Shown here: piece after piece, positions 11,593 to 40,583 of the stretch
How the letters are laid out: each line of letters opens with the position of its first letter
How positions within the stretch are numbered: position 1 is the first letter of the stretch
Notes under the pieces: model-generated
Seen by the model: only the letters and a program-made list of their open reading frames with translations
Databases searched by the model: none
Told to the model about the DNA's origin: nothing
NCBI GenBank assembly: GCA_964358615.1
Contig: CAYHOV010000002.1
Span: forward strand, 1 to 44,076
DNA from: Candidatus Woesearchaeota archaeon
GTDB taxonomy: Archaea > Nanobdellota > Nanobdellia > Pacearchaeales > GW2011-AR1
DNA: 44,076 nucleotides
Direction of reading: 5' to 3'
Made by a program: the position numbers and the translations under genes

Positions 11593-11593
11593 A

Positions 11594-13813: not shown

Positions 13814-14523
13814 CAGAACCTTATCGAAGCATAGCCGACGACACTTTCCCTCTCGCCAGTTATATCTCCTGAATTTTTATACTCAATAAGTTTTGGTCTC
13901 CATTTCTTTATCTTACAGAGTTCCATCAATACCATCAAAGGAAATTGGCCACATGCATCCATTTTTTCAAGTTTAGAAAAATCCAGATCCTCTAAAATTT
14001 TTATCGTCTCCTTATCTTTTTTAACTGCTTTTTCATAGGACAAAAAATGACTCAGATCACTAGATACAATAAAAACTCCCTTGAAATCTTTTATCTTCTC
14101 TGCGATTTCTCTTGCTCCATTCAGATCAATTTGCCCGATCATCAACGGCAAAATTTCTCCAAATCCAAGTCTCTGTAAAAATGGGATTTGATTGTCTATA
14201 GCATGCTCACCAGAAATATCAATTCTCTTGAAACTACTCTCAATAATTTTTATCTTTCCAAAGACTGTTGCCCGCCATCTTTTATCATGAGTTACAGCTC
14301 CTTGAAGAGGAATATAATGCGACGGTGCAAGAATAATCGCTTTCTTTGCTTTCAAATTTTTTAGAAGTAAAAACGCATTTCCAGCAATTTCTCCAGAATA
14401 ATCATAGCCAGCATGAGGTACAACAATTCCGTGTACATCTTCCCGAATATCCAATTTTGCAGAAAAATATTTATCAATAATATTTCCAAGTTCAACCCTA
14501 TCAGAAGTATACCATTGGCCCAT
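13813..14523 (-). CDS. amrB: MEMO1-family protein (AmmeMemoRadiSam system protein B)
   Basis: HGIVVPHAGYDYSGEIAG and SSDLSHF motifs. Its stop overlaps the amrS start by 1 nt. Confidence 0.85.
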   Translation of the reverse strand: MGQWYTSDRVELGNIIDKYFSAKLDIREDVHGIVVPHAGYDYSGEIAGNAFLLLKNLKAKKAIILAPSHYIPLQGAVTHDKRWRATVFGKIKIIESSFKRIDISGEHAIDNQIPFLQRLGFGEILPLMIGQIDLNGAREIAEKIKDFKGVFIVSSDLSHFLSYEKAVKKDKETIKILEDLDFSKLEKMDACGQFPLMVLMELCKIKKWRPKLIEYKNSGDITGERESVVGYASIRF

Positions 14524-18243: not shown

Positions 18244-18486
18244 TTACTCTTTTATGCTTGAAGGAGATATAAAAATAATCGTATCTCCCCTCAAAAAAGT
18301 AAGGCCGTAGTTTCTTGTCTGTTCACCGTTCTCTAGCTCTTTCGCATTGTCGACCACAATATTGATGTGGATGTCAAACGCCAAGAGCTTCCCTACCATT
18401 TGCTTTCCGCTTTTCAGCTGGATAAGGACTTCTTTTCCTTTTGCTGCATTTAGCAAGTCCAACGGTCTCTCTATGCCATTAACCAT
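18244..18486 (-). CDS. Sm-like (LSm) archaeal protein
   Basis: Sm1 motif GKLLAFDIHINIVVDNAKE and Sm2 motif TFLRGDTIIFISP. Confidence 0.85.
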   Translation of the reverse strand: MVNGIERPLDLLNAAKGKEVLIQLKSGKQMVGKLLAFDIHINIVVDNAKELENGEQTRNYGLTFLRGDTIIFISPSSIKE

Positions 18487-18586
18487 TCTCTAACTTAAGA
18501 AAAACACTTTTTAAACCTTATTCTGATTTTGTTGTCTTTTTCCGAGGTAAAAAATTTAAAAAACTACTCAGCCCGAGTATCATAAA

Positions 18587-18762
18587 GACCCTCTTGCGTA
18601 CCGCACCTTAAAAGAGGTAGTTTGTTCGAACAATTCGCTTTTGATATTATTCTTGATTTGTGAAAATCAAAAAGCAAATTGTGAGTAGTCGGATTTTTGG
18701 AGGACAGGAAAAAATCAGCATAACAAACCGCAGTCTAAAGACTGCGGATTTTTTCCTGTATT
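18587..18762 (+). ncRNA. Candidate structured sRNA, copy A of an intergenic element family
   Basis: TATA-like AAATTTAAAAAA at 18552-63. Core at 18704-18759: outer stem ACAGGAAAAAAT/ATTTTTTCCTGT enclosing hairpin CCGCAGTC-TAAA-GACTGCGG, followed by a T-run. About 90 percent identical to copy C across the core. Confidence 0.4.
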
Positions 18763-18922
18763 AACAATAATAAGAGGTAAAAACCTAACAAAACTCACTG
18801 CAAACCGGTTAAGTTATCATTAATTAATAGTCCGCGTTACCAGACGACTATTAAGGGGAACAAAATGCAGATTATATTTTCAAAAAATAATTCTAAAAAA
18901 TTATAGAGAATTCCATTCAAGA

Positions 18923-18959
18923 TAAAAAAAGAAAAAAGAAAAAAGAAAAAATAAGAAAA
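18923..18959 (-). terminator. Oligo-T tract terminator (minus strand TTTTCTTATTTTTTCTTTTTTCTTTTTTCTTTTTTT)
   Basis: Lies immediately after the stop of the 199-aa gene. Archaeal termination typically uses T-runs. Confidence 0.5.
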
Positions 18960-18960
18960 T

Positions 18961-19560
18961 TTAAATTGCAGTTGCAGTAGCCGTGATAAGATCGCCTTTT
19001 GCACCAGGAACCGCATCTGAAGGAATTACTATTCTAAAGTCAATTCTTAACTTGTCTTTTGTATTGTTATATACAAAATCGTTACAGATATTTAGATCTG
19101 CTGTCGTATTTACAGGATAAAATGATCCTTCAGTAACATTGACAACAGTACAGCTTCCAGCTTCAGCATTTGTGAAGTTCCATTGATATTCAGGATTAGT
19201 TCCGCCGATGAATTCAGCTGCAGTTTTTCCAGCTTTGAAGGCTAAAGTAACATTAGTATTGCCAATGTTCTCTAGGGTCAAACCCGTATTGTTTGCACTC
19301 CAATTTCCACCTGTTACAGTTCCGCTAGCAGTATTAATTGTAGCATTTGCTTGTCCATAAGCTACCTGCCCAGAACCAAAGTTGAGGTTGTCTATCGTAA
19401 AATTAATCGCAGTCAATGATTCTATAGTTAAATTCACAGTCGCTGTATCTGTTGCATAACCTGTTATTGTCCCGACTCTATCAAGACTGACGAACATGTT
19501 AAAAACAGCTACAATCACTGCAATGATTCCTAAAAGAAGTATAAAGTTATTACTCTCCAT
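18961..19560 (-). CDS. Membrane-anchored/secreted beta-rich protein (199 aa), possible fibre or pilin-like subunit
   Basis: N-terminal hydrophobic helix (FILLLGIIAVIVAVFNMFV), then a T/N/G-rich beta-type sequence ending in RIDFRIVIPSDAVPGAKGDLITATATA. 11-nt overlap with the upstream 69-aa gene. Confidence 0.6.
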   Translation of the reverse strand: MESNNFILLLGIIAVIVAVFNMFVSLDRVGTITGYATDTATVNLTIESLTAINFTIDNLNFGSGQVAYGQANATINTASGTVTGGNWSANNTGLTLENIGNTNVTLAFKAGKTAAEFIGGTNPEYQWNFTNAEAGSCTVVNVTEGSFYPVNTTADLNICNDFVYNNTKDKLRIDFRIVIPSDAVPGAKGDLITATATAI

Positions 19561-19759
19561 ACCACCATACCTCTTGAGAATCCTGTGCCTGCGGATATAC
19601 GATCAAACCAATAGTTCCTGCGCCCATATCTCCGCCCCAGGCTTTCGCCTTAGTCGATTGTAGATCATTGACATTCAACGTCAAAGTCACTGCAATCGAT
19701 ACAACGGATAATACTATAGCGATTACTAACAAGAAAACAATTGTTTTATCTGATACCAT
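19550..19759 (-). CDS. Small membrane-anchored protein (69 aa)
   Basis: N-terminal TM helix (IVFLLVIAIVLSVVSIAVTLTL). Overlaps the next gene. A TATA-like box lies about 20-28 nt upstream. Confidence 0.5.
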   Translation of the reverse strand: MVSDKTIVFLLVIAIVLSVVSIAVTLTLNVNDLQSTKAKAWGGDMGAGTIGLIVYPQAQDSQEVWWYGE

Positions 19760-19844
19760 CTCTTTTGTTTTTTTATAAAATTTAGTTAATTATAGATATA
19801 TATTCTCCTTTATAAATATTTGTTTTTCTCGAGGACATCAAAAA

Positions 19845-20036
19845 AACAATGGGGCACCGCACCATAAATGGTGCGGTTTGTAAAGCCCCTTGTTTTTGGA
19901 AAAAATTTCACTCTTGTTATCTTTATTTTTTTATTCTCAAGAGTAAAATTTTTTGAGACAGAAAACGGGAAGTTGCGAAGGCAACTTCCGCAGCCTAAAG
20001 GCTGCAGTTTAAGACCGTTTTCTGTATTATTTTTTC
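19845..20036 (+). ncRNA. Candidate structured sRNA, copy B of the element family
   Basis: TATA-like CTTTATAAATA at 19808-18. 5' module at 19851-19889: GGGGC[ACCGCACCA-TAAA-TGGTGCGGT]TTGTAAAGCCCC. Core at 19958-20025: outer stem ACAGAAAACGG/CCGTTTTCTGT enclosing hairpins GAAGTTGC-GAAG-GCAACTTC and GCAGCC-TAAA-GGCTGC, followed by a T-run. Confidence 0.4.
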
Positions 20037-21253
20037 CTTCTAGCCACTAGTCTTCTCCAGAAAACAAACCACAGAACATTAATTAATATTAGTATGATTA
20101 CAAATATCAGAATTACTTCTTTTATACTGATTGTAGAACCACTTTTAGCAGAACCAATGACATAACCCACTCCCTGAATATCCATATTATTTTGAGTAAT
20201 CTTCAATACTAAGTCCCTATCAGTACTTTTTTTATCATATTTTACTAAAAGTTTTCCACGATATTCTCCCTCTTGCACGCCCATAGTATCCCAGAAAGCG
20301 ATTAGCTCTTTTTTGCTTAATGCAGGCACACTTTCAGTGGCAGATTTTATATCAGCCACAGAATGTTCTTTATCGTCATAAACAAGAAGATTCGCAAACA
20401 CTGTCTTAAATTCCTCATCCCACTTATTTTCAACAGAAATACTTAGCTTAACAATTTCTCCCAATCTAAAGTCGTTGACAAATATCCTATCTATTGCTAA
20501 ACTCTCTTTTCCAAGTTCAAATTCTTTTTCAAAATCCTTGCTCTCTCCGTCATAAAATACTCTGACTTTGGCCAAATAATTTCCAGGAGTAGCATTCACA
20601 AACCATTTCGCAACAAGTTCTGCCCTGGCTCCTGCGATTACCGAAGAAGAATCACTTTCAATGCTCGCAATTTTTTCATTCTTCAGATTATAGATATCAA
20701 TTGTCGCTTTTGCGTCGTTAATTCCAAGCTTGCCTCTATTAATAATAGGAACTACAAATGTTGCTGTAGAATTCTGCTCTGCATTTACAACACTTAAGTC
20801 AATATCAATGCACTTTCCAGGACAAGGCACGTAAACAAATAATTGCGAGACAACCGCAACAGTTGCTCCGACAAAAGTTCCAGATTCTTCATCTGTTTTT
20901 GGGATCTCCATTACTACAATTTCAGCAACATGTAAACCCGGCTCTTTAGCAAGCCTATCAGGAAGTTTTATTTTATATTTCAACTGTTTTCTTTCCTCAT
21001 CAAAATTAAATTCCATCAAGTTCCTCGACAGAATTATAGAATCATTTAATTCACCCTGGACATAGATACTGGTTTTCATATCTTTATTCTTATTATTGAG
21101 AACATCGAGTGTGATCTCCTGCTCCTGTCCTCCTTTGTAATCAAGACTAATTCTGCCAGGAGTAATTCCTAAAGCAGAAATAAGAGAGATATTTGCTAGG
21201 ATTAAAAATACAAAGACAGATACTGCTGCTAAAAATCTATACTTTTTATCCAT
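20027..21253 (-). CDS. Surface protein with signal peptide, tandem beta-sandwich (CARDB/NEW3-like) domains and a C-terminal TM anchor
   Basis: The start is moved to MDKKYRFLAAVSVFVFLILANISLISALG, with GGAGG a few nt upstream. C-terminal anchor VILIFVIILILINVLWFVFWRRLVARRKK. 8-nt overlap with the upstream gene. Confidence 0.65.
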   Translation of the reverse strand: MDKKYRFLAAVSVFVFLILANISLISALGITPGRISLDYKGGQEQEITLDVLNNKNKDMKTSIYVQGELNDSIILSRNLMEFNFDEERKQLKYKIKLPDRLAKEPGLHVAEIVVMEIPKTDEESGTFVGATVAVVSQLFVYVPCPGKCIDIDLSVVNAEQNSTATFVVPIINRGKLGINDAKATIDIYNLKNEKIASIESDSSSVIAGARAELVAKWFVNATPGNYLAKVRVFYDGESKDFEKEFELGKESLAIDRIFVNDFRLGEIVKLSISVENKWDEEFKTVFANLLVYDDKEHSVADIKSATESVPALSKKELIAFWDTMGVQEGEYRGKLLVKYDKKSTDRDLVLKITQNNMDIQGVGYVIGSAKSGSTISIKEVILIFVIILILINVLWFVFWRRLVARRKK

Positions 21254-21716
21254 TCTGCCTCCCGACGTATTTTCCTTCATCTTCGATTGTTTGAGTTTCG
21301 TTTGGGTCAAGCACAATATGTCCCGCCAAAATACCGCCTTTATCTCTTGTGATATTTACTCTAACATTCCCCATATTTACAAGTTCTGTATCATTATTCT
21401 CCCTTTCTATATTCAACCCGACCTCACTGTCGACGCTAAATCTATTTTCAAAACCCTCGAGCAAATTATTTCTCGCTTTCCAATAATAAACTCCGGGTGC
21501 TAATCTTAAAGACAGATTTTCCTTGATCTCGACATATTTTGCATCTGAAAAATCCGGACTCTGAGAAATCACAATAATCTTTGTGTTACTCGAATTAAAA
21601 TTCACAACACTGCCCAAAACATTTACCGAAATCCGAGGATAAGAAGCAAACACAAACAGCAGAATTCCAAATATTAAGATCGCCTGCACAATCACAATTA
21701 TTTTTGTAGTTACCAT
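21246..21716 (-). CDS. Membrane-anchored small protein (156 aa)
   Basis: N-terminal TM helix (IIVIVQAILIFGILLFVFA). Its ATG directly abuts the giant gene stop (TAAATG). Confidence 0.55.
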   Translation of the reverse strand: MVTTKIIVIVQAILIFGILLFVFASYPRISVNVLGSVVNFNSSNTKIIVISQSPDFSDAKYVEIKENLSLRLAPGVYYWKARNNLLEGFENRFSVDSEVGLNIERENNDTELVNMGNVRVNITRDKGGILAGHIVLDPNETQTIEDEGKYVGRQNG

Positions 21717-24700
21717 TTAATCAATTCCAGTATAAGGTTCCCCCAAACTTCCTGTAAAGACTACTGTTGAAAGTTTATTTCCAGCAGGTTCATCTGCAGG
21801 AATTTTTACAAGCAGATCAACAGAGACATTATTGCAACCAGATTGATAACCCGACGTAAAATTCATACGATTTATTGCCCTCGCAGTCAACAACGGAGCA
21901 TCATTCCACGAGACCAATGTTCCCGAATCTACAAAACATCCTGAAGTAGTATTTCTTATCTTAAATTGGAAATAACTGCTAGGATTTGAAGCAGAAGAAA
22001 ATAAGTTAGTAAAATTTACAGAAATATTTGTCTGAACATTACCATCATTCTGCAATACAAAAGGCCGAGGGTCATCTAAGGAGGTATTTTTGCTCTCAGA
22101 TAAATTCATATTCTCAAACAAAATATAATCCGTAGGAAGGCTTATAACAATATTTGATTGTATTGAAATATTTCTCGGAACAGCCCATACTCCATAAACT
22201 TGGCCATCATTCGCCCTCGCAGTCCAATTATAATAATAACCATTATCAATTAAATACTCTAGATAAGCAGGCACAGTGTAGTTCGTAGACGAATTAATAG
22301 TATTGTTTTCATAATATCTATTTCCAAGAGAGCAGGTCCCGCCTCCACTATACAAGCAAGTCAAATTTAATTCATAGCTCAAAGCATCACCATCATCGTC
22401 GCTGCCGCTATAATAAAATGTCGGCGTTCTATTTGTCGTAATATTTCCATCATTTGGAGAAATTAGCGTTACTGTCGGAGGAGTATTTAATATTGTCAGG
22501 TTCCCGCTAAAACCAAAACTCGAATAATCAAGGCCATCAAACAACCTCAGACCGCAGCTCCAATTCTCCCCTTTTGTAGTATTCGCATCATCAAGAACAG
22601 CGATAAACAAACTTCCATTTGCATAACTATTATTATAATCCATCGTCAAATTCAAAGTTCCATTATTATACCATCTGACTGTAACATTCATCTTGTTGAG
22701 ATCTACATCAGTGATATTTGCAAAACAATTCAGATCAGCTTTTGTCCTGTTGCTTCCATCTGTTGAATTTATCGTCACTGCAGGAGTATTTGGTGCGGTA
22801 TTTCCTGCGATTATATCTAATGTTCTTATGTCTGTCATATTCTCTCGAGCATTTGTATCTTTAACATAGGAATAATAAGTATAATCTCCTAAACTTAAAT
22901 TACTTTTATTGACGCTAAACTGCCATTGATCAACATCTGTCCTATGTAAAGAAGAAGAATATAACATCCGGATTTCATCATCTGTCAAGCTTCTATTCCA
23001 AATTCTTAATTCGTCCAAACTTCCATTTATTCCAGCTCCGCCAGTGCCTCCGCCAATATTAAGATTACCCAATGAAGAATTGACAACTCCGGTAAAATTA
23101 TCAGAAGTTCCTTCTACGCCATTCATGAATATCCTCAGGTCAGTTCCATTGTAAGTAGCAACTACATAATTCCAACTATTAAGCGGAACCGCAGAGAAAT
23201 AAGCTTTGTTATTGATATAATGATTGACATAGAAATTTAAAGTACCATCCTCAAAAAAGAAAAGCCCATAGCCATCAGTCCAACTATATACAGAAGTCTT
23301 CATAGCTAAAATACCATACTGAGTAGTAGATCCTACCTTAAACCAAGTAGCCAAAGTCATTTCTCTGCTGATATTCAGCGAAGGAGAATTAGAGATATTA
23401 AAATAAGGGCCGGTATTAACCGAACCAAAGCTATACGCTCCTCGATAATGTCCTCCAGAAATATCAAACGAAATATTACCCGTAGCTGTTGCATCATTAT
23501 TATATTTACTCAAATCTTTTACATAAGTGCTATTCTCACCTAAACTTGAAATATTATCAAAATCCATCATCAGCGCAAGACTCTCGTCGAATAAAGTATA
23601 GTTTGTAGAATTCCAATTGAATATAAATTTATCAATCCCCATTTCAGTTATAGAAACATTGAATATGAAAGATCTATTTGACGTCGTTGTTCCATTTGCG
23701 GGCGTCGGATCACTAAATGAAATAAGGGGATAAGCAGTATCAACAAAAATTCTTCGCGTTTCAGTAGAATTATAATTTCCAAGATTATCATAGGCATCTG
23801 CACTCAGCAGATAAACTCCGTCGCTAAGCCCGCTAAAATTTATAAATAATGGCGAGCTTGTCGAGTTGCTCCAATTTACAAGACTGCCAGTTGAATTGTA
23901 AAGATAAATACTTACATTTTTCAAACTCGACTCAATCGCAGTCACATTCGCTAAAATATAATTTCTATAGACAAAACCAGCACTATCTGTAGGAGTTACA
24001 AAATCTATTTGAGGCGGAGTGAGATCCCGGATAAACCAACGAGTCTCAGTAGTATTTTCATTACCTAAAGAATCTTTTGCCGACGAGAAATAATTATATA
24101 TTCCCTCGTCCAATCCGCTAGTTAAATTTTTAGTCTGATTCACTTGAAGATACCATTGGCTATTATTATATTTTTCCAAATTCATTTGATAATTTTGAAC
24201 AACTTCGTCTTCACTCAAACTTCTATTCCAGATCCTTACTTCATCAATCATTCCGTCCCACCATCCACCAGGCCAATCACCAAGATTTCCTCCAATCCTT
24301 ATGCTGCCAGTATTGGGAATATTTCCAGAATAAGCAGCATCTGTTCCTTTTTTGCCGTTGACATAGATTCTAAGTGTAGTCCCATTGTAAACTCCGACGA
24401 CCTGAGCCCATTCACCAGTATTGATTCCAGCAGATGCTTTCGGACTTCCACTTGAACCGACGTAAAAATATATAGCATCAGCCCAATAAAATCCCCAGCC
24501 ATTCCCCCAACCACTATCAGCATCTCTTCCAATTATAGTCTTATAGACGCTAAAACTATTAGCATAGACCCATGAAGAAACAGTCATCGCAGTCCCGTTA
24601 GTATTATTTACCGAACCTAAATTAATATAGTCTCCATTTCCGTCGAACTCGATCGCTCCGCCGTATTTTCCGCTCTTAGTTGGCTTTGCATTGATGATAG

Positions 24701-27700
24701 TTCCATTCGTCGAGCTAGCTACGTCAACAGCATAGGTCGAATTTTCACCGATAGCAGAATTATTATTGAAATTGAACATTGTCTTCAATGTCGAATCAAA
24801 AATTGTATAGTTCGTCCCATTCCAATTATATTTTACTTCTGCTAAATTTGCTTCTGTTATTGAGACATTAATTTGTACAGTGGTATTTGTCATCGCTGTA
24901 CCATTGGCCGGCGTAGGATCTACAAAATTTATTCCAGGAGGAGTCCCATCTCCTGCTTCTCCATTTAAAGTGATGCTGTTTGTCAATAATTTTGGCGGGA
25001 ATGGCCCGATAGCAGTAGTGAGATTCACCATATACTGGACATAATTTCTAGGCAATAGGCTAGAGATATCAGAATAAGTATTGTTTTTCACGACAATATC
25101 CCACCCGCTTTTATCTGAACAATCAGAAGTTGTACAAGATCTGATAGCGATGCTGATATTATTTATTGTACTATTAAAATCCGCGTCCCAGGAAATATTT
25201 TTCCATGCAACAGCAGTTCCCATATTTTTTACATTCGAATGATAATAACCTTCATACATTGAATTAGTTATAAAAATAAAATGAGAGGTCTGATTAAATT
25301 CTGCTTCAGAGTAATTTCCTAAATTCCAGCCGCTGAAACTGTAATTTGAATCTGCAAATCCGCATGCTCCAGAACTATCGCATGCTCTACAATTCCAGAT
25401 ATATTCAGAATCCTTTACAGAATAATTGCCGACGACATTTTTCATATCAAAACTAAAATTACTCGAGTTGGAAGTTCCTGAAATATTTTTTGTTTCATTC
25501 AAATACCAAGAACCGCCGATATTTGTATACAGAGAAATATTTACAAGATTATTAGTTGAATTAACAGAGCAATTGAGCGTGACATTTCCTAAAAGATTGA
25601 TGGTATGATTGTTATTCTGCGGATAATTTAAAGTCACATTAATTCCAATGACTTCGATAATTTCTTGACTTATTGTCACATTCCACGTCGAAGTCATATT
25701 GCCCACATTCATTCCCGCAGTCAGATTTGCAAAAACAAAAAACTCATAACTATCATTAATGTTTCCTGTAGCATTCACAAAAAAAGTCACAAGCCGTGAT
25801 TCTCCATTGTTCAAAGTAAGATTATATGGATTTTGTGTAATTGTATAAAATGGGGTTTCAGAAGAATTCATTGAAATCAATCCCTTGACAAATACTTGTT
25901 TTATTATTACATAACCGTCTCCTAAATTTATTCCAGATAAATTTGTCTGATTAGCTCCAGTATTATACGAGCCTGCTCCTCCCCCTTGTCCATGGCCAGC
26001 CCATCCTCCTCCGCCGCCTCCTGAATATCCTCCGCCGCCCCCTGCTCCGACATAAGTTCCTGCTCCTCCTCCAAATCCTCCGTCATGCCCACCATTATCT
26101 CCTGCTCCTCCTGCTCCTCCTTCTAAAAAACGTTTTCCTCCACGAGAACTACTGCCGCCGTTAGTTAACCAACCAGCTCCTCCTCCACTATAAACGCCCG
26201 CACCGCCTCCGCTTCCATTAAGACTGCCGACGCCAAACTGGCTGACTGTCCCATTCATTCCCTGAGTAGTATTTTGACCATCTGCATCACTTGTCGTCGA
26301 GTAATCGCCTCCGCCTCCGCCGCCTCCGGCGATGATCAATGGATTATTATTTTTTACTACAAAAGTTCCACCACCCCCGCCAACGCCTCTTGTACCTCCA
26401 GTATTGTTTGTTCCAGCTTGTCCGACTAATATTTGAAGTACTTCCCCCTGGACTAAATAAAAATAACCTTGTATTCTTGCACCTTTTCCTCCGGGATATT
26501 GCGGAGGATTTCTAGCACCTTCAGCTCCATAGACATCAATAAAATAAGTTCCATTTGCAGGAACAGTCCAATTTTGTATTCCATTGCTTACGTCGACAAG
26601 TCCGGATAAAGTTGTCCCAGAATAATTAGAATTGCATAAAGTTTGATTTGGTCCAAGTCTTCCGGATTTATTACAGGTCGTAAATCTATATTCTGTAAAA
26701 TTTGTAGGATCAAGACTTACATTTATCTCTCCGCAATTTCCACCAGAACAAGAAACATTTAAAGTCACATTAAATAGTTTATATCGCGAAACATTTACAT
26801 TTGTCGTCGGATAGATCAAATCCAATCCAATTCTGAGAGAAGTTAAAGTAAAAGTTACATTCGTAGAATTCTCATTTCCACGCGAATCATTACAATATAC
26901 TGTCCAAGTATTTGAACCTTCAACACTATACGCATTTGTAAAATTAGTCCCCATTGCAACAGCACTCGAGTTTGTCAATCCTCCGTCGATAGAATACCAG
27001 CAATAAGCTTTATTCAATTCAATAAAAGTATAATTTAATTCGCTGATGTTATAATAATAGATAGTATTCTGCGGATAGATTATATTCATCGCAGGATAAA
27101 TTACGTCAAGTATCTTCAATGGCAAGAAATCCGTGATTCCGCCTGTAGTGTAATTCGTATCGCAGATGCTGTCTCCATCGACATCAGTGCAATTATCTGA
27201 AAATCCCTGCGAAGAAAGATTTGTCCAGAAATTCCCGCCAAGATAACTTCCATTCACAATACTTGTTCCTGCTGTTTTTGTAGTGTTCCAGAAAGAAGCA
27301 GAACTGGTCGCAGAAATTATTTTATTTATAAATCCAATATAATTATTAAATATTCTATTCGAAGTACTCGATGATAATAAGATAGCATAGCCAGTATTAG
27401 AATAAAATGTGTTTGAAGTGATATTATTTAGATCTCCGGTAGCGATATTTAATCCGTCGCCAGTATTAGAACTGATTGTATTAGCAGTAACAATATGACC
27501 TCCATTAGTGACCATAGTTATTCCATTTCCAGCATTTGAACTAATATTATTTCCAGAAATATTGCTGCCTATTCCCGAGACATAAACTCCAGCACTTCGA
27601 CCATTTGAAATATTATTATTAAAGACAACAGGATTATTTCCAGCTAAACTAAGACCATAACCTCCATTTGAGCCAATAGTATTATTATATATAAAAAGTC

Positions 27701-30700
27701 CGGGAGTACTAGTTAAAGCATTTATTCCCCTAAGTAAATTAGAACTGATTGTACTTGATTTTATAGTAAGATTTTTATTTCCCCCATCAGTATATATTCC
27801 ATCCAGGCTATTGTTATTCGCAATAACAGAATCCAAAGTATAATTAGATAATGCAGAATAAGCACTGAAAAACCAAAATCCATAATAATTATAGCTAGAG
27901 TTGACATTCGTAAATGTAAGATTAGTAGTCTCTATGATAGATATAGCATTATTCAATAGAGTATCAGAACCACTGACCGTCACATTGGTAATACGTGAAT
28001 TAGATGCGCTAACTCCTACAAAAAGTAATTGTGAAAAATTTTGATTTGATATGTTCACAGTTTGATTATAATAGCCGATCAATCTTCTACCAGAACCATA
28101 GCAATTGTCAAATATGTCATTGTAGATAGCAGGAGCACCATAGGTATAGACATCCATCTGTGCGCTTTCTGTAAAATTAGAATTATTCATGACATTCGCA
28201 CCATTGCTATTAAGATAAATTCCATACTGCTCATTAGAATTAGCCGAGACATAATTAAGATTATTTTTAAGTCCACTGACCCTGAATCCATAAAGATTAT
28301 AATCCGCACTGACAGAAGTTAAATTATTGTTATTTGAACTGAGTATCCAAACTCCATATTGAGTATTATTATCTGCACTCATATTTGTCACAAGATTAAG
28401 ATTCGAAGACGTTGTAAGATAAGCCCCATTAACATTATTTATATTGACACTTATATCACTAAGATTATTCTTTGAAGAAGCAGTAAGATAAACACCAGTA
28501 TTCGAATTATTATCTGCAAAAATCGAATTCAGCAGATTATTATGGCTTGTATCCAAATAAACCCCATAGGTATTATTATGGGTAGTTATATTTGTCAAAC
28601 TTGAATTTCCTGCAGAAAGCAACGATATCCCGTCCTGAGCATTATAAATAGAAATAATATTCTTGAGCGTATCATTGGTGCTTGTCTGGATATAGACTCC
28701 TGCATAATAATTCCTATCAAATATCGAAGAAGTTATATTTGTGAAAGAGCTTGATGAAAAATAAATTCCATAATCTCCTCTGCTTGAATTTACATTATCT
28801 ATAGTTCCATATTTATTAGATAAGAAATAAATTCCATATCTGCCCAAGCCATTACCTGGCGCTGTTCCTTTTTGAACTCTGCAATTTTTTACATGAGTAT
28901 TATTATAATTTGAGGAAATTCCAGCATAAAGCGTCGACACAGTATTATTTCCGTAGATGATAAGATTATCCCAGCTCTGACAATCTAGAGTTACATTATC
29001 TGCAGTCACATTGAAGCAAGTAAAATTTGTAGAAACACTATTAGCTAAAGTATAGGTAGTATTGGCGATGCTGAGCGGTCTGCACGAATCAATATTTGTG
29101 CCCATATTCCTATTGAATATTACGCTCGTCGAATTAAAATTTCCAGCAGAATCATTGCAATATAAATTCCAAGTATTAGAACCCTCAACACTCGGCACAT
29201 CTGTGAAATTTGTTCCCATTACAGCATTGCTTGAATTAGTGATTCCTCCGTCAACAGAATACCAGCAGAAACCGCCGTCAGGATCATCAGAAGTATATGT
29301 CAAAGTAGATACATTAAGATACCATGTTGAGTTGGAAGGATAGACAATTCTCAGCGACGGTGCAATAGTCGAAATAAACTTTAAGCAGACAGAGATATTT
29401 TCAGGAGTATTATTGCAGCTTGAGACATGGGCATTTGTTTGATTCGACAGAGTGAATGCGCAGACCCAACCAGTAGGACAGGTTCCGTTTAGAGGCTGGA
29501 AACTTACATTCGCAGTATAATCAGTAGTGTTAGACCCAAAATAAATCAGATAAGGATAATCGTCACTGCTCATATTCCCCATCTCAGCATGAGCATTTGT
29601 ATAATTTGAAAGTCTGGCGATAGTCACGCCAGTATTATTTTTTACAGCGACGACGTTTCTCGTATCTCTGCAACAAGAAGAACGGCCATAATCCGCACTG
29701 CTCTGATTCACAACTTCTGCATGGGCATTTGTATAATTGCTCATTCTCAGCATCACGGTCCAGCCAGCAGGACAATTTCCAGTTACGACCTGGCAAGTCA
29801 GATTTGGAGCAATAGGATCGACGACATAATCCAAGTCTACATTTCCGATCATCCTCAGATCAAAAACATCCTCAGGAACAGTTAAATTAGTCAGATAGAC
29901 TTTATACCAGCTCTCTCCAGAAACATTTTCAAATACAGCAATAGTTTCATTCTGATTATTTACATAGACCTCGATGCTTGTAGAATTTCCATCACTCGAT
30001 CTTCCATAGATACTGATATCCTTTGAGCTGTCCAATTCCTGCTCAAACGTTACTCTCAGATAATGTCCACTAGGGATCGTCGTCCAATTATTATCCTGCG
30101 CCTTGACATAATCATATACTTCTTCGATAAAAGTTCGATTTTCGTCAAGATGTTCTGCTTTTGTGATATAGATCACATCATATGTCTGATTCGATAGATG
30201 TTCAACATTCCACTCAATATAATCAATAAAACCGTCGCTGTCAAGATCAGAAGCATTAAAATCAACTTCAACTCGCACAATCTCGCTTAAATTTTCCCGA
30301 GTGTCAATATTTTCAGTAGGAGAAATAATATCTAAAGTATTATTTATTTCTTCAGTCAAGTTCAAAGATATATTTTCAATGACTTGACCAGTCATAATTA
30401 CTCGGAAATCTTCAGAAGAATTTGTAATATTTTCAGAAACATTGTTGCTATTGATTAAAGATTCATTGCTACTATTGTTCTCAGAAATAATATCGCTAAA
30501 ATTATAAATATTAATACTATCATTAAAGGTCAGATTATTTAGATTACTTGAATTACTCTTATTAAGAATAATCCATTCACTTGAATTAGTCAAATTCTCT
30601 TCGAAAATAATAACCGAATTATTTGCAACATTGTTTGTAATATTAATATAACCATACTTGATTGCGTCTGCCCGTGTAGTATACCAATAAACTTTTATTC

Positions 30701-32210
30701 TTGAAATATAATCATTCTTTATTGTTGAACTCTCTATGAGAGTATAGGCCAAAACATTGCTATAATTTAATTCATCAGCCGCACCGACAATGACTTTTTT
30801 TCCCGTTCTCATATCTTCCTCAAAAGCCCGCGCAGCAGGAGTATAGTATTCAACCGCAACCTCGTCAACATTTTGTTCTTTAGCGATTTTATCTGCGTCG
30901 ATTATTTTCTTGTTCTCCACTTCAATAATGCTATCACTAAAATTATTTTCCTCGAATATTGAAGCGCCAGTTATTGGCCAAAACGAAAAAAAGCTGAATA
31001 ACTTACCGAATATTGAATTCTCCAGATTAAAAATAATCCCGCCGGTGATAGTTGATCCAAAATTATTGGACGTTTCTGCCTCGCTGAAAGCTCTTTCTGC
31101 TTCATTGCCGGTTTTGATAGTGATATTCTCTGCCTCTTTTGGGATTTCTATATTGACATTCTGATCTCCAATGATGCTTGCTTTCTTGATCCACTTGACA
31201 GGCCTTCCGATGACTGCTCTGAATTGCCTTACGCTGATATTTCCAGAATCTTGCGTCAGATTAAAAAAACTTTCATTTTTTAGAGTTTCATTAAACAGAG
31301 TATAATTAAAAAGAGTTTGATTTGTCTGATTAAGATTGATCTCGCTCTGGTTTATTTCAATACTCATAATACTCATATTTGTACTGAAATTAAAGAATCT
31401 CAAACTTTGATTAGTAATATTTTCATTTAAAAGACTTTCATTATTTGCAGTGTTTGAGATATTTAGAGTTAAGTTGCCCGACCCCCCGCTGCCAACAAGA
31501 GTTTCATTTTCAACAAGTATATTTTCAGAAGAATTATTGCCAGAATTGTTAGAACTGATATTTGTTTGACTGAAATTTTGATTTATTGTGGGATTTATTG
31601 TTTGGTTCAGGTCTACACTCTCATTGACCAAAATATTTTCATTTCCGCTATTATTTGATATAGAAATAATTTCAGGATTTTCAACTGGCTGTTCTGTTTC
31701 TGGATCGATATAAGCTGCTTCCTGCAATTGATTTTCAGTACTTGTATCTTGAGAATTAGTAGATTCTTGAGAGCTTGTATCTGGGCCTTGTGTAGAAGTA
31801 CTTTCAGAAGATGATGGTGTCTCTTCTGAAGATGTAGAAGAACTCTCCCTGCTTGAAACACTTGAACTTGATTGAGTCTCAGGATTATATTCAGAACTTG
31901 TCTCAGTTCCTTCTAAAACCAATCCAGATATTTTATTATAGACCGAGTCTGTTAAACCAACAATACTTTTCAAGATGACCTCTGGAAATTTTTGACTAGA
32001 ATTAATTTCACTATGTAGAACAACCATAAAAACAGATAATGAAATAAGGACGACAAGAAAGCTTGGTATCAAAATTTTTTTGCTTACTGAAAAAGTTTTT
32101 GCTTTTCCTAGATATCTTTTTTTTACCTTGCCATTTTTGTCTCGATAACTCTCATAGATGTAGGGGCCATAGGTCTTACCTCTTTTTGTAACAACTCTTT
32201 TATGACTCAT
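21717..32210 (-). CDS. Giant (3497 aa) mosaic surface protein: basic cytoplasmic N-terminus, TM helix, S/T-rich linker, Cys-bracketed NAH repeats, Ig-like modules, a long parallel beta-helix (PbH1-like) region, an ALK-like glycine-rich domain and two LamG/ConA-like domains
   Basis: Uninterrupted 10.5-kb ORF. N-terminus KRGKTYGPYIYESYRDKNGKVKKRYLGK followed by a TM helix. Beta-helix repeats (NTYGVYLDTSHNNL.., NTQYGVWILSSNNNNL..) at about 27230-29090. LamG-like ends IDEVRIWNRSLSEDEV (about 24200-24700) and LDELRIWNRSLTDDEI (about 22970-23480). Sequons throughout. Confidence 0.9.
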   Translation of the reverse strand: MSHKRVVTKRGKTYGPYIYESYRDKNGKVKKRYLGKAKTFSVSKKILIPSFLVVLISLSVFMVVLHSEINSSQKFPEVILKSIVGLTDSVYNKISGLVLEGTETSSEYNPETQSSSSVSSRESSSTSSEETPSSSESTSTQGPDTSSQESTNSQDTSTENQLQEAAYIDPETEQPVENPEIISISNNSGNENILVNESVDLNQTINPTINQNFSQTNISSNNSGNNSSENILVENETLVGSGGSGNLTLNISNTANNESLLNENITNQSLRFFNFSTNMSIMSIEINQSEINLNQTNQTLFNYTLFNETLKNESFFNLTQDSGNISVRQFRAVIGRPVKWIKKASIIGDQNVNIEIPKEAENITIKTGNEAERAFSEAETSNNFGSTITGGIIFNLENSIFGKLFSFFSFWPITGASIFEENNFSDSIIEVENKKIIDADKIAKEQNVDEVAVEYYTPAARAFEEDMRTGKKVIVGAADELNYSNVLAYTLIESSTIKNDYISRIKVYWYTTRADAIKYGYINITNNVANNSVIIFEENLTNSSEWIILNKSNSSNLNNLTFNDSINIYNFSDIISENNSSNESLINSNNVSENITNSSEDFRVIMTGQVIENISLNLTEEINNTLDIISPTENIDTRENLSEIVRVEVDFNASDLDSDGFIDYIEWNVEHLSNQTYDVIYITKAEHLDENRTFIEEVYDYVKAQDNNWTTIPSGHYLRVTFEQELDSSKDISIYGRSSDGNSTSIEVYVNNQNETIAVFENVSGESWYKVYLTNLTVPEDVFDLRMIGNVDLDYVVDPIAPNLTCQVVTGNCPAGWTVMLRMSNYTNAHAEVVNQSSADYGRSSCCRDTRNVVAVKNNTGVTIARLSNYTNAHAEMGNMSSDDYPYLIYFGSNTTDYTANVSFQPLNGTCPTGWVCAFTLSNQTNAHVSSCNNTPENISVCLKFISTIAPSLRIVYPSNSTWYLNVSTLTYTSDDPDGGFCWYSVDGGITNSSNAVMGTNFTDVPSVEGSNTWNLYCNDSAGNFNSTSVIFNRNMGTNIDSCRPLSIANTTYTLANSVSTNFTCFNVTADNVTLDCQSWDNLIIYGNNTVSTLYAGISSNYNNTHVKNCRVQKGTAPGNGLGRYGIYFLSNKYGTIDNVNSSRGDYGIYFSSSSFTNITSSIFDRNYYAGVYIQTSTNDTLKNIISIYNAQDGISLLSAGNSSLTNITTHNNTYGVYLDTSHNNLLNSIFADNNSNTGVYLTASSKNNLSDISVNINNVNGAYLTTSSNLNLVTNMSADNNTQYGVWILSSNNNNLTSVSADYNLYGFRVSGLKNNLNYVSANSNEQYGIYLNSNGANVMNNSNFTESAQMDVYTYGAPAIYNDIFDNCYGSGRRLIGYYNQTVNISNQNFSQLLFVGVSASNSRITNVTVSGSDTLLNNAISIIETTNLTFTNVNSSYNYYGFWFFSAYSALSNYTLDSVIANNNSLDGIYTDGGNKNLTIKSSTISSNLLRGINALTSTPGLFIYNNTIGSNGGYGLSLAGNNPVVFNNNISNGRSAGVYVSGIGSNISGNNISSNAGNGITMVTNGGHIVTANTISSNTGDGLNIATGDLNNITSNTFYSNTGYAILLSSSTSNRIFNNYIGFINKIISATSSASFWNTTKTAGTSIVNGSYLGGNFWTNLSSQGFSDNCTDVDGDSICDTNYTTGGITDFLPLKILDVIYPAMNIIYPQNTIYYYNISELNYTFIELNKAYCWYSIDGGLTNSSAVAMGTNFTNAYSVEGSNTWTVYCNDSRGNENSTNVTFTLTSLRIGLDLIYPTTNVNVSRYKLFNVTLNVSCSGGNCGEINVSLDPTNFTEYRFTTCNKSGRLGPNQTLCNSNYSGTTLSGLVDVSNGIQNWTVPANGTYFIDVYGAEGARNPPQYPGGKGARIQGYFYLVQGEVLQILVGQAGTNNTGGTRGVGGGGGTFVVKNNNPLIIAGGGGGGGDYSTTSDADGQNTTQGMNGTVSQFGVGSLNGSGGGAGVYSGGGAGWLTNGGSSSRGGKRFLEGGAGGAGDNGGHDGGFGGGAGTYVGAGGGGGYSGGGGGGWAGHGQGGGAGSYNTGANQTNLSGINLGDGYVIIKQVFVKGLISMNSSETPFYTITQNPYNLTLNNGESRLVTFFVNATGNINDSYEFFVFANLTAGMNVGNMTSTWNVTISQEIIEVIGINVTLNYPQNNNHTINLLGNVTLNCSVNSTNNLVNISLYTNIGGSWYLNETKNISGTSNSSNFSFDMKNVVGNYSVKDSEYIWNCRACDSSGACGFADSNYSFSGWNLGNYSEAEFNQTSHFIFITNSMYEGYYHSNVKNMGTAVAWKNISWDADFNSTINNISIAIRSCTTSDCSDKSGWDIVVKNNTYSDISSLLPRNYVQYMVNLTTAIGPFPPKLLTNSITLNGEAGDGTPPGINFVDPTPANGTAMTNTTVQINVSITEANLAEVKYNWNGTNYTIFDSTLKTMFNFNNNSAIGENSTYAVDVASSTNGTIINAKPTKSGKYGGAIEFDGNGDYINLGSVNNTNGTAMTVSSWVYANSFSVYKTIIGRDADSGWGNGWGFYWADAIYFYVGSSGSPKASAGINTGEWAQVVGVYNGTTLRIYVNGKKGTDAAYSGNIPNTGSIRIGGNLGDWPGGWWDGMIDEVRIWNRSLSEDEVVQNYQMNLEKYNNSQWYLQVNQTKNLTSGLDEGIYNYFSSAKDSLGNENTTETRWFIRDLTPPQIDFVTPTDSAGFVYRNYILANVTAIESSLKNVSIYLYNSTGSLVNWSNSTSSPLFINFSGLSDGVYLLSADAYDNLGNYNSTETRRIFVDTAYPLISFSDPTPANGTTTSNRSFIFNVSITEMGIDKFIFNWNSTNYTLFDESLALMMDFDNISSLGENSTYVKDLSKYNNDATATGNISFDISGGHYRGAYSFGSVNTGPYFNISNSPSLNISREMTLATWFKVGSTTQYGILAMKTSVYSWTDGYGLFFFEDGTLNFYVNHYINNKAYFSAVPLNSWNYVVATYNGTDLRIFMNGVEGTSDNFTGVVNSSLGNLNIGGGTGGAGINGSLDELRIWNRSLTDDEIRMLYSSSLHRTDVDQWQFSVNKSNLSLGDYTYYSYVKDTNARENMTDIRTLDIIAGNTAPNTPAVTINSTDGSNRTKADLNCFANITDVDLNKMNVTVRWYNNGTLNLTMDYNNSYANGSLFIAVLDDANTTKGENWSCGLRLFDGLDYSSFGFSGNLTILNTPPTVTLISPNDGNITTNRTPTFYYSGSDDDGDALSYELNLTCLYSGGGTCSLGNRYYENNTINSSTNYTVPAYLEYLIDNGYYYNWTARANDGQVYGVWAVPRNISIQSNIVISLPTDYILFENMNLSESKNTSLDDPRPFVLQNDGNVQTNISVNFTNLFSSASNPSSYFQFKIRNTTSGCFVDSGTLVSWNDAPLLTARAINRMNFTSGYQSGCNNVSVDLLVKIPADEPAGNKLSTVVFTGSLGEPYTGID
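25893..26699 (-). other. Domain within the giant protein (aa 1838-2106): TNF-like plus glycine-rich (polyglycine) module resembling the ALK/LTK extracellular TG domain
   Basis: FTTCNKSGRLGPNQTLCNSNY, GIQNWTVPANGTYFIDVYGAEG, LQILVGQAG, GGGGGTFVVKNNNPLIIAGGGGGGG, GGGGGYSGGGGGGW, DGYVIIKQV. A local GC-rich island in an AT-rich gene. Confidence 0.6.
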
Positions 32211-33651: not shown

Positions 33652-35058
33652 ATGCAAAAAAGAGTTGATAATAAGCAAGTTAGTTTTATCTTTTCAATAA
33701 TTTTAATTTTATTGGTTCTTTCAATATCTCAAGTTTTCGCACTTGTAGGCCACACAGCATCTCAGATCACTGGCGGCGCCCTGGGTTCTGGAAATTATAC
33801 CTATTCAGACAGTATATTTGTAATGAATAATATTGGAGTTAATACTACTCTCCCCCATGCAGCACTAGATGTAAATGGAACAGCGGTAGTAAATAAATTC
33901 TATACGGCAGGAAATAATACAAGGAATACTGGCGATGCCCAAGCAGCAGATATAGTAATCGGTTCTTCTGCTGTAGGTGGAATAAGGCACAATGGTAACA
34001 TAATGTTCTGGACATTAGCCGGAGCCGGAAACATATTAGCTGACGATAGTAGCGGAGCAAGAACATTACATCTTCAAGAATGGAGTTCATCAAGTGACGG
34101 GGTAACACTTCCTTTCAATGCAGGCGGAACAAGTTATTTTTCAGGCAACGTCGGCATCGGCACAACAAATCCCGGTGTTAAATTAACAACTCAAGGAACA
34201 AATGGCGCACCTGCAACATCCGGATCTGCACAAACCTTTGGCGGATTTAGAATCGAGAATCAAGCAAATAATTATGTTCTTGACTTTGGTATAAATGGTG
34301 GAAATCCTTGGTTACAATCATATACCGATAAAACAAATTTAGCCACCTATAGTGGTATATTATTAAATCCAAATGGCGGCAACGTCGGCATCGGAACCAC
34401 AAGCCCATCACAAAAACTCGACGTATTCGACGGCAACAACCACGTCACTATCGGAGAAGGCGGCAATGGCGCAATAATCCGATTAAACAGTACTGGAAAT
34501 TATGTACAGCAGATTAGTTTTGCAAGCAATAGCGTCGATGGAGTTAAGCTCAGAGGATCTGGCTATGGTCTTGCAATTCAAGGAGTTGCTCCTTATCTAA
34601 ACATTGGCTATGCAGACGCAGCATATAATGTCCCTCTTGTCGTCAACGGCACTGTTGCTATAAACAGAACAACAGCAGTATCTGGTTATATCCTAGCTGT
34701 CAACGGCCAAATCTGTGAAACAGATACTTCCTTAAGCGCTTGTTCTTCAGACGCTCGATTAAAATATAATATAAAACCAATTGCCAGCGGACTAGACATA
34801 ATAATGAAACTAAAACCAAAAACATTCAGCTTCAGCCCTGACGGACAAATCCAAGGCGGACTAATTGCCCAAGATCTTCAAGTCTCAAATCCAGACTGGG
34901 TAGTCTACAAAGACGACGGCTACATGACCTACAATGACCACGACTTTATAAAATTCTCAACAGTTCGAGCAATCCAAGAACTCAAGCAAGAAAATGACGT
35001 CTTGAAATCCGAGCTTTGCAAAAAAGATCCAACCTATTCTTTCTGTAAGAAAAAATAA
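33652..35058 (+). CDS. Tail-fibre-like surface protein with a C-terminal intramolecular chaperone auto-processing (peptidase S74-like) domain
   Basis: N-terminal TM/signal segment. Repeated GNVGIGTTNPGVKL / GNVGIGTTSPSQKLDV motifs. C-terminal CSSDARLKYNIKPI..GLDIIMKLKPKTFSF..GGLIAQDL..IQELKQEN matches the S-D-x-R-x-K ... G.IAQE ... IQEL pattern of endosialidase/tailspike chaperone domains. Confidence 0.7.
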   Translation: MQKRVDNKQVSFIFSIILILLVLSISQVFALVGHTASQITGGALGSGNYTYSDSIFVMNNIGVNTTLPHAALDVNGTAVVNKFYTAGNNTRNTGDAQAADIVIGSSAVGGIRHNGNIMFWTLAGAGNILADDSSGARTLHLQEWSSSSDGVTLPFNAGGTSYFSGNVGIGTTNPGVKLTTQGTNGAPATSGSAQTFGGFRIENQANNYVLDFGINGGNPWLQSYTDKTNLATYSGILLNPNGGNVGIGTTSPSQKLDVFDGNNHVTIGEGGNGAIIRLNSTGNYVQQISFASNSVDGVKLRGSGYGLAIQGVAPYLNIGYADAAYNVPLVVNGTVAINRTTAVSGYILAVNGQICETDTSLSACSSDARLKYNIKPIASGLDIIMKLKPKTFSFSPDGQIQGGLIAQDLQVSNPDWVVYKDDGYMTYNDHDFIKFSTVRAIQELKQENDVLKSELCKKDPTYSFCKKK

Positions 35059-40465: not shown

Positions 40466-40580
40466 GGGTCCCATAGTATAGTGGCAGAACAGCTCTTTGA
40501 CGAATTCATGAGATTTCAGGAATTTCCAGAAATCTTGATTTCAAGATGGAGCAAGCCCAGGTTCAATCCCTGGTGGGACC
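40466..40580 (+). tRNA. tRNA-Val (GAC) with a ~44-nt intron (about 40502-40545)
   Basis: Acceptor GGUCCCA/UGGGACC plus A. D arm GUAU-AGUGGCA-GAAC (one mismatch). Anticodon stem GCUCU/GGAGC, loop UUGACG.. T arm CCAGG-UUCAAUC-CCUGG. The intron boundaries and anticodon assignment are hand-derived and less certain. Confidence 0.65.
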
Positions 40581-40583
40581 ATA

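Follow-up and report, generated by a model that had tools for sequence, protein, structure and literature searches.

A TG domain lies within a giant archaeal protein

We analyzed a 44,076-nucleotide stretch of DNA from a Candidatus Woesearchaeota archaeon (contig CAYHOV010000002.1, positions 1 to 44,076; here called the window), in which a 10.5-kb open reading frame (ORF; 21717 to 32210, minus strand; taken from the ORF list and its translation) encodes a predicted surface protein of 3497 amino acids. Residues 1838 to 2106 of this protein almost certainly form a true homolog of the TNF-like plus glycine-rich (TG) supradomain of the receptor kinases ALK and LTK, as judged from Pfam and PDB searches and a structural model. 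The segment spans 25893 to 26699 on the minus strand (the first base of residue 1838 is 26699, and the last base of residue 2106 is 25893), and a hidden Markov model (HMM) of the family found exactly one TG copy in the window. An order of motifs had been listed for these residues in a first-pass annotation made from the DNA letters, and the translation contains them in that order: FTTCNKSGRLGPNQTLCNSNY, GIQNWTVPANGTYFIDVYGAEG, LQILVGQAG, GGGGGTFVVKNNNPLIIAGGGGGGG, GGGAGW, GGFGGGAG, GGGGGYSGGGGGGW, and GDGYVIIK. In GGGGGTFVVKNNNPLIIAGGGGGGG, the K-to-P spacing, from GGGGGTFVVK to PLIIAGGGGGGG, is three residues and not the two that had been given.

All features of the giant gene described here lie on the minus strand. 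The protein begins with a basic, putatively cytoplasmic tail and a single hydrophobic span (residues ~45 to 65, ILIPSFLVVLISLSVFMVVL; together 32013 to 32210, from the translation), followed by a Ser/Thr/Asn-rich stretch, uncharacterized modules, and a right-handed beta-helix/NosD-like region (residues ~1170 to 1666; 27213 to 28703), which was detected by Pfam on 350-residue tiles (Beta_helix, E = 1.6e-19 and 1.4e-17; NosD, E = 3.4e-15 and 7.3e-26). Two small beta modules, a "CWYS" Ig-like module and a "NVSCSGGNCGEINVSLDP" module, sit just upstream of the TG domain (residues ~1700 to 1835; 26706 to 27113) and were recognized by the recurrence of this cassette in relatives. The TG supradomain itself opens with the N-terminal half of the TNF-like subdomain (residues 1838 to 1935, FTTC...ILVGQAG; 26406 to 26699), placed by ALK matches and model strands. 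It continues with a glycine-rich subdomain (residues 1940 to 2082; 25965 to 26393), placed by the model and by alignment to the polyglycine-II (PGII) segments of ALK, and closes with C-terminal strands (residues 2086 to 2106, ...GDGYVIIK; 25893 to 25955), placed by model strands and family conservation. The longest and most variable inter-PGII loop, DYSTTSDADGQNTTQGMNGTVSQFGVG, covers residues 1969 to 1995 (26226 to 26306) on a conservation map of 61 TG domains. Ig-like modules continue downstream of the TG domain and are followed by two Laminin_G_3 domains of the ConA-like lectin fold (residues 2523 to 2670, 24201 to 24644, Pfam E = 8.1e-27; residues 2933 to 3080, 22971 to 23414, Pfam E = 3.4e-24); Pfam also gave a weak Big_13 match in the protein.

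The hydrophobic span probably serves as a membrane anchor, with all downstream residues predicted to be extracellular. Sequons of the form N-x-S/T numbered 227, compared to 94 ± 8 in shuffled sequences (16 standard deviations above), so that both the hydrophobic span and the sequon enrichment agree with the giant surface protein that had been claimed at this locus. Given the N-terminal span, the sequon excess, and the set of domains, the predicted product fits an N-terminally anchored, multidomain surface adhesin that is heavily N-glycosylated and exposed at the cell surface. No EGF-like or kinase domain was found anywhere in the giant protein by Pfam, whether the whole protein or tiles were scanned, and Pfam found no ATPase domain in it. 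Separately, a small Cys-containing module (CP.GW ... SN[YQ]TNAH[AV]) was observed in three copies at residues ~808 to 945 (~29380 to 29790, minus strand), upstream of the first CWYS Ig-like module; this repeat had no Pfam match.

At the DNA level, the TG segment stands out as the guanine-plus-cytosine (GC)-rich island that had been reported at these coordinates, with a GC content of 0.48 to 0.55 at 25850 to 26450 compared to ~0.30 to 0.37 nearby. The glycine share is 30.9% in the TG domain and 7.3% in the remaining giant protein. From its amino acid composition and the codon usage of the gene, the domain would be expected to have a GC content of 0.48, compared to the 0.462 observed; amino acid composition therefore accounts fully for the island, which arises because of glycine content. 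GC content at third codon positions (GC3) was 0.238 in the domain and 0.283 elsewhere in the gene, and glycine codon preferences were alike. By codon usage and GC3, the TG segment is a native part of the gene. We also considered a foreign origin of the GC island and rejected it, since GC3 and glycine codon choice match the remaining gene and nothing in the DNA appears foreign.

The archaeal domain is homologous to the TG supradomain of ALK and LTK

The homology to ALK/LTK that had been proposed in the first-pass annotation was borne out by both sequence and profile searches against PDB chains. With phmmer, the segment matched ALK (E = 4.1e-17), LTK (E = 1.9e-16), and Caenorhabditis elegans SCD-2 (E = 1.7e-5), which were the sole PDB sequence matches. 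A profile built from the segment and 45 homologs (46 sequences) matched the ALK/LTK chains with an E value of 2.4e-49. The only two cysteines of the domain, Cys1846 and Cys1859, a putative disulfide pair, align with the FTTC...QC pair of ALK (FTTC-x12-C motif), and the ~32-residue insert that follows ILVGQQGED in ALK is missing from the archaeal domain.

Given the glycine content, we asked whether the resemblance could be low-complexity bias only, with no real TG domain present. Three observations lean that way: the glycine-rich stretch of the ALK alignment is heavily biased (15.3 bits, bias 38.7); the segment scored below the gathering threshold of its Pfam family; and a tblastn query of GenBank phages with the complete domain was empty, probably as a result of low-complexity filtering. 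In contrast, the non-glycine N-terminal stretch of the alignment to ALK (7lrz_A) by itself scored 54.7 bits with a bias of 0.5, and the corresponding TNF-like stretch scored 106.8 bits with a bias of 0.3 when the profile was used. A full residue shuffle of the segment gave no PDB match at E <= 10, and a block shuffle that kept all glycine runs and inter-run blocks while scrambling their order gave no ALK match. The structural model described below matches the whole TG supradomain. Non-glycine scores, shuffles, and structure superposition together exclude pure glycine bias, to which we assign a vanishingly small probability.

Pfam gave a mixed result. PF12810, which was formerly called Gly_rich, the name used in the first-pass annotation, and which carries the name ALK_LTK_GRD in the Pfam copy searched, was the sole Pfam match on the segment, as had been anticipated, and its score fell short of the gathering threshold (20.0 bits, E = 7.2e-4; threshold, 24.5 bits); the match was lost once the tile ended at residue 2100. 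Relatives pass the same threshold (L001, 48.7 bits; P0241, 83.6 bits; P0242, 49.2 bits; P0244, 27.0 bits; P0252, 34.3 bits), and these homologs are 47 to 55% identical to the domain in the window. The shortfall of the archaeal copy therefore reflects the sensitivity of the model and is no argument against homology. The TG domain was also missing from the precomputed annotation of the giant protein.

Because the protein has no EGF or kinase domain and the ALK insert is absent, its sequence identifies it as a homolog of the domain and not as an ortholog of ALK. The archaeal copy shares with the human ALK/LTK TG domains (7lrz, 7n00, 7nx1, and 7nx3) the order of motifs, the first Cys pair, and a sandwich closed by C-terminal strands, at ~31% identity. 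Unlike ALK, it has neither the ~32-residue insert nor the extra cysteines; unlike ALK and LTK, it sits between Ig-like modules of an adhesin, is followed by no EGF-like domain, and is accompanied by no MAM/LDLa domain, no kinase, and no known ALKAL-type ligand.

The predicted fold reproduces the whole TG supradomain

We modeled the domain with AlphaFold2 from the homolog alignment without templates (mean predicted local distance difference test score [pLDDT], 92.5; predicted template modeling score, 0.91). The model contains seven strands in residues 1840 to 1961 and two in residues 2086 to 2106. Strands at residues 1840 to 1843, 1872 to 1882, 1887 to 1894, 1910 to 1919, and 1924 to 1928 belong to the TNF-like N-terminal half, and the C-terminal strands (262 to 271 and 276 to 282 in model numbering) rejoin the TNF-like sandwich. 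A G.G.V.I motif in these C-terminal strands is kept across the family; its aligned counterpart in ALK is EGHGEVNIK. The glycine-rich middle has a pLDDT of mostly 90 to 98 and is classed by DSSP as "-" (neither alpha nor beta), and it is broken by two short strands, TFVVK and PLIIAG. Coordinates for the 14 PGII helices of human ALK have been published (Table 1 of PMC13243192). All 14 of these segments align with glycine-rich stretches of the archaeal domain, which superposes on the glycine-rich subdomain of ALK/LTK, and the model thus suggests that ~14 PGII helices may form a lattice there.

When the model was compared to PDB entries with Foldseek, all 21 significant matches were ALK, LTK, or SCD-2. 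The LTK TG domain (7nx1) matched with an E value of 4.8e-17 and template modeling (TM) scores of 0.70/0.72, and ALK (7lrz) gave TM scores of 0.76/0.72; across LTK 7nx1 and ALK 7lrz/7nx3, TM scores were 0.70 to 0.76 and E values were 5e-17 to 1e-14, at ~31% identity. These alignments run over 315 to 340 columns and hence cover the whole supradomain. Training of the AlphaFold2 weights used structures that predate the 2021 ALK/LTK entries, and the agreement of the model with those entries is therefore independent. The first-pass annotation had staked its claim on an ALK/LTK match and on a TNF-like sandwich in the predicted structure, and both were found.

Across 61 aligned TG domains, the glycine lattice and the core of the sandwich are kept and the connectors between PGII helices vary, residues 1969 to 1995 being the most variable. 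The archaeal copy is the compact "prokaryotic" form of the domain, ~270 residues long, with a beta-sandwich made from the first ~100 and last ~20 residues, from which the predicted glycine-rich lattice of ~14 PGII helices would project.

PGII bundles are also the ice-binding fold of springtail antifreeze proteins, and the source of the DNA is apparently cold groundwater, judging from a sample name. That the PGII surface would bind ice or minerals through a flat face, in the manner of the snow-flea antifreeze proteins, is nevertheless extremely improbable: the domain has no sequence or fold similarity to antifreeze proteins, the significant PDB fold matches being to ALK, LTK, and SCD-2; the predicted TG lattice is multilayered and capped by loops; and aquifers do not freeze. 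We rejected an antifreeze-like role on the Foldseek results.

TG domains are widespread in prokaryotic surface proteins and phage tail fibers

A word-indexed search, in which 8000 candidates were scored, returned at least 1544 clusters at 90% identity that match the TG domain, the top matches being ~50% identical. Many of these carry precomputed PF12810 calls together with type IX secretion system (T9SS) sorting domains, prepilin N termini, or PEP-CTERM, FN3, or Big domains. When 1.84 billion representatives at 50% identity were scanned exhaustively with phmmer, 5829 proteins reached E <= 1e-3, of which 3369 were at <= 1e-10 and 447 at <= 1e-30. The 139 new top representatives include 112 that reach 1000 residues or more, 51 that reach 2000 or more, and 97 that carry two to six TG copies. 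The motif that precedes the TG domain in the window, C[GS].I[ND]V.LDP, is shared by 16 of these 139, all of them sequon-rich giant proteins. One of these 16 (P0253; 4323 amino acids) is encoded on an 884-kb contig that also carries RFC, FEN1, and Trm5/TYW2 and so points to a small archaeal genome; the TG domain of P0253, too, is absent from the precomputed annotation. As judged from these sequences, prokaryotic surface proteins and phage tail fibers very commonly use the TG domain as a building block. The first-pass annotation had held that an archaeal homolog would bear on the origin of the fold; this significance was overstated, the copy being not a lone homolog but one of thousands in prokaryotes and viruses.

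Further relatives came from a scan of GTDB genomes, a set that lacks the genome of the window itself, with a single-protein query, which finds close relatives only and returned 4 loci. One of them, in an archaeal metagenome-assembled genome (MAG) of the uncultured archaeon LFW-165_1 (L001), encodes a 3830-residue protein with four TG copies and four LamG domains. Upstream of each L001 copy tested lies the two-module cassette seen in the window (48 to 51% identity over the cassette), which shows, at the level of sequence, that two beta modules plus a TG domain recur as a cassette in DPANN giant proteins. The fourth TG copy of L001 is cut by a stop codon (18452 to 18460), and the next ORF (18455 to 20419) begins with the missing C-terminal part (profile positions 269 to 314; E = 1.4e-10); the split copy could be a pseudogene, a sequencing error, or a case of read-through. 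Another archaeal protein (P0005) is 480 residues long, has its TG domain between a signal peptide and a C-terminal anchor, and is encoded beside TFB and an ATP-dependent DNA ligase. In two Flavobacteriales/Bacteroidia MAGs (L003, 5772 to 12585; L004, 7452 to 14263), tandem arrays of 4 to 5 paralogous genes encode proteins of ~560 to 590 residues, each with a TG domain at its end, and a more divergent copy lies upstream; these arrays look like a diversifying surface-protein family. The prokaryotic "glycine-rich protein" members of PF12810 belong to the same family as the archaeal domain: relatives 42 to 55% identical to it carry the PF12810 call and are surface targeted via T9SS, PEP-CTERM, prepilin, or PEF/transmembrane anchors. 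The copy in the window differs from them in its sub-threshold score and in residing in a DPANN giant adhesin, compared to a bacterial protein of 300 to 600 residues.

The family also extends into viruses. Searches of BFVD viral models gave 71 matches at E <= 1e-3, including cyanophage virion/tail-fiber proteins and giant-virus proteins; two PHROG families of unknown function match the domain (phrog_22713 and phrog_7388; E values down to 3.2e-37); and IMG/VR contigs also carry matches. A tblastn search of GenBank phages with the TNF-like half returned 4 records only. One protein (P0258) combines three TG copies with a Peptidase_S74 domain, and another (P0011), 50% identical to the domain in the window, is encoded within a block of tail-fiber genes. 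We also noted that a TG-type gene of an Actinomycetia phage (OQ999401.1, 116024 to 116317) is annotated "ALK tyrosine kinase receptor" and that several phage and giant-virus TG proteins in BFVD are auto-named "receptor protein-tyrosine kinase" with no kinase present. These viral labels are a mis-annotation that propagates from the name of the domain.

In metazoans, coral proteins from Acropora and Oculina (P0108, P0113, and P0118; on scaffolds of 2 to 30 Mb) combine PAN/Apple (and kringle) domains with a compact TG domain and have no kinase. The coral TG domain is 42% identical to the archaeal copy, compared to ~31% for human ALK, and is without the ALK insert; these PAN-TG proteins may be relevant to the rise of the metazoan ALK ectodomain. 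In a neighbor-joining tree of 61 domains, the coral proteins fall among prokaryote-type sequences, human ALK has the longest branch, and the copy in the window is not grouped with the L001 copies. The tree is star-like and carries no support values, so no conclusion about donor or recipient follows from it.

These data also bear on whether the archaeal domain was recently acquired by horizontal transfer from a phage tail fiber or a bacterium. The separation from L001 in the tree would fit such a transfer, as would the tail-fiber-module protein P0011 among the nearest sequences, the GC island that looks foreign at first sight, and a tail-fiber-like gene 1.4 kb from the giant gene. Glycine codons explain the GC content, however, and GC3 and glycine codon choice are native; the cassette and TG domain are kept together in other DPANN giant proteins at ~50% identity, and a star-like tree without support cannot show a donor. 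We therefore regard recent acquisition as quite improbable.

A possible role as a binding head

We consider it likely that the giant protein is a DPANN adhesin carrying a true TG homolog, which we propose to serve as a binding head; for a binding role of the TG domain in itself, as argued by analogy, the chances appear about even. The glycine lattice would provide a rigid, compact scaffold, and the loops joining the PGII helices, above all residues 1969 to 1995, would form a recognition surface, making this loop a candidate specificity determinant. Such a surface would bind a molecule on the envelope of a partner (host) cell or on a substrate, in parallel to the binding of ALKAL cytokines by ALK/LTK and of host receptors by phage tail-fiber tips. 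Since the chain enters and leaves through one sandwich, the module could be inserted among Ig-like domains and project sideways, so that it would be threaded into the Ig-like string as a side-projecting head on the stalk of the adhesin. The neighboring LamG and beta-helix domains suggest glycans or glycoproteins on the envelope of the partner cell as targets. We base this proposal on the conserved scaffold with variable loops and on the recognition role of the domain in ALK/LTK and in the phage tip. By analogy, it also draws on the tail-fiber setting of P0011, on the surface-sorting signals of bacterial relatives, and on the pairing of TG copies with Peptidase_S74 in P0258.

Three known systems offer comparisons. 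In the cyanophage Pam3, cryo-electron microscopy of the tail-fiber protein gp24 revealed a TNF-like and glycine-rich tip that was reported to be similar to C. elegans ALK (7LIR) and has been assigned to host recognition (PMC9608196). This two-part architecture is like that of the archaeal domain; unlike it, the gp24 tip is C-terminal and trimeric, requires a chaperone, and acts in the context of a virion, whereas the archaeal copy is single and internal to a protein that is predicted to be membrane anchored. In gp38 of Salmonella phage S16 and the T-even phages, a glycine-rich PGII scaffold is conserved and variable segments between the glycine motifs recognize the receptor, a pattern that the conserved scaffold and variable loops of the TG family resemble. 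In gp38, the lattice packs on a beta-helix where the TG domain has its TNF-like sandwich, and neither a sequence match nor a fold match to the gp38 structure 6F45 was obtained from the archaeal domain (Foldseek against PDB). Lastly, DPANN archaea have giant surface proteins, for example the nanohaloarchaeal "SPEARE" proteins, that are membrane anchored, carry Ig-like and LamG domains, and have been proposed to mediate host attachment (PMC10266531). The protein in the window is comparably a multi-thousand-residue, predicted extracellular and anchored DPANN giant adhesin; the SPEARE proteins differ in that their description includes a VirB4/TraG-like ATPase domain but no TG domain.

The main rival on function is a structural or oligomerization role, in which the TG domain would act as a rigid spacer, or as a TNF-like trimerization node that bundles giant chains, and would bind no ligand. 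TNF-fold domains and the Pam3 gp24 tip are trimeric, the TG domain is internal to the chain, the multiple copies per chain seen in relatives (up to 4 to 6) would suit a repeated bead, and the beta-helix and LamG domains of the same protein could do the binding. [quoted passage not shown] Moreover, the glycine core is kept and the connecting loops vary, as expected of a scaffold for binding loops. We therefore judge a purely structural role unlikely.

Several points weigh against a TG homolog acting as the binding head of a DPANN adhesin. Phage tips are trimeric and terminal, and the archaeal copy is internal (residues 1838 to 2106 of 3497) and single. The binding function comes from analogy, and the PGII geometry would follow from superposition on ALK/LTK and from confidently modeled regions that are neither alpha nor beta. 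TNF-family ligands (TNF, 4-1BBL, CD70, and similar proteins) gave weak, partial structural matches (E = 0.6 to 2; probability <= 0.23). To these may be added the sub-threshold PF12810 score and the lack of any NCBIfam match for the segment or for either giant protein.

Evolutionary reading and significance

The distribution of the family leads us to a tentative, two-part idea that in its joint form we hold to be doubtful: that DPANN archaea use TG domains as interchangeable host-recognition heads, as phages do, and that the metazoan ALK/LTK domain came from the prokaryote/phage pool of TG domains. In the DPANN archaea, giant adhesins may carry one or several such heads along the chain, and the inter-PGII loops may set partner specificity. 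If the metazoan domain did come from the prokaryote/phage pool, the secreted cnidarian PAN-TG proteins would be a surviving intermediate. Neither idea was found in the structural or evolutionary literature on ALK that we searched.

Much of the background is already known: PF12810 is curated with many prokaryotic and viral members, the likeness of a phage structure to ALK is in print, and giant DPANN adhesins have been described. The literature found on PF12810 amounted to a single fungal genome paper, which states no known function, and no discussion of prokaryotic homologs of the ALK domain was found in the literature searched on evolution and on polyproline-II bundles. What is new is modest. 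Standard annotation passes over the copy in the window, as well as others in giant proteins of DPANN archaea, owing to a sub-threshold Pfam score and to the absence of the module from precomputed domain lists. TG modules also recur in DPANN giant proteins, on which we found no discussion in the literature searched. Since the occurrence is not unique to the window, a single copy carries limited weight; it is a new member of an existing family and not a singular find.

In most accounts, the TG fold figures as an oddity of two human receptor kinases. Viewing it as a mass-produced surface module, with settings that include DPANN giant adhesins, Bacteroidota T9SS proteins, pilin-like proteins, phage tail fibers, and giant viruses, places the ligand-binding domain of ALK/LTK in an evolutionary context. 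Small, kinase-free, and naturally diverse versions of the domain may be of use for protein design. For DPANN biology, a candidate recognition module is flagged in proteins that are thought to mediate host attachment.

Host and neighboring genes

The giant gene is chromosomal and lies among housekeeping genes. Flanking genes encode TFB, a GINS51-like protein, an AMMECR1/Memo/radical-SAM trio whose radical-SAM member carries an intein, and an intron-bearing tRNA; TFB, the GINS51-like protein, the trio, and the tRNA establish that the host is an archaeon, as had been claimed. TFB is 80 to 85% identical to proteins named Nanoarchaeota, Pacearchaeota, and Woesearchaeota (85% to MAG proteins of the first two), and this identity points to a DPANN archaeon (Nanoarchaeota/Pacearchaeota-like). 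Identical TFB genes were found on contigs of an ENA sample labeled Hain_H43_02um, and the source is apparently groundwater.

A second giant ORF (71 to 7903, minus strand) encodes 2610 residues; its product has Ig-like domains of the Big_13 and Big_7 types and lacks a TG domain. With two giant ORFs, this small-genome archaeon spends at least 18 kb of the 44-kb window on giant surface proteins. Three ORFs of 156, 429, and 199 residues (18961 to 21716, minus strand) lie directly downstream of the giant gene. Each has an N-terminal hydrophobic span, the 429-residue product also has a C-terminal span, and none of the three had a Pfam match; together with the giant gene, they may form a surface-protein operon.

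On the other side, a divergently transcribed gene at 33652 to 35058 (plus strand) lies among housekeeping neighbors, ~1.4 kb away from where the giant gene starts. It encodes a 468-residue protein that has a hydrophobic span at its N terminus, Gly-rich repeats (GNVGIGTT...), and a Peptidase_S74 intramolecular-chaperone domain at its C terminus (E = 1.3e-11). This protein matches many PHROG tail-fiber families (E values down to 1.6e-14) and is either a phage-tail-fiber-like cellular fiber or a viral remnant.

Elsewhere in the window, the radical-SAM gene of the AMMECR1/Memo/radical-SAM trio (11594 to 13813, minus strand, with 11065 to 11616 and 13813 to 14523) is split by an intein, which was identified by Intein_splicing (E = 4.5e-18) and by a LAGLIDADG homing-endonuclease domain (LAGLIDADG_3; E = 6.6e-7). 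The tRNA (40467 to 40581, plus strand) is 115 nucleotides long, was detected by Rfam (45.2 bits) and missed by ARAGORN, and is consistent with an intron-containing archaeal tRNA.

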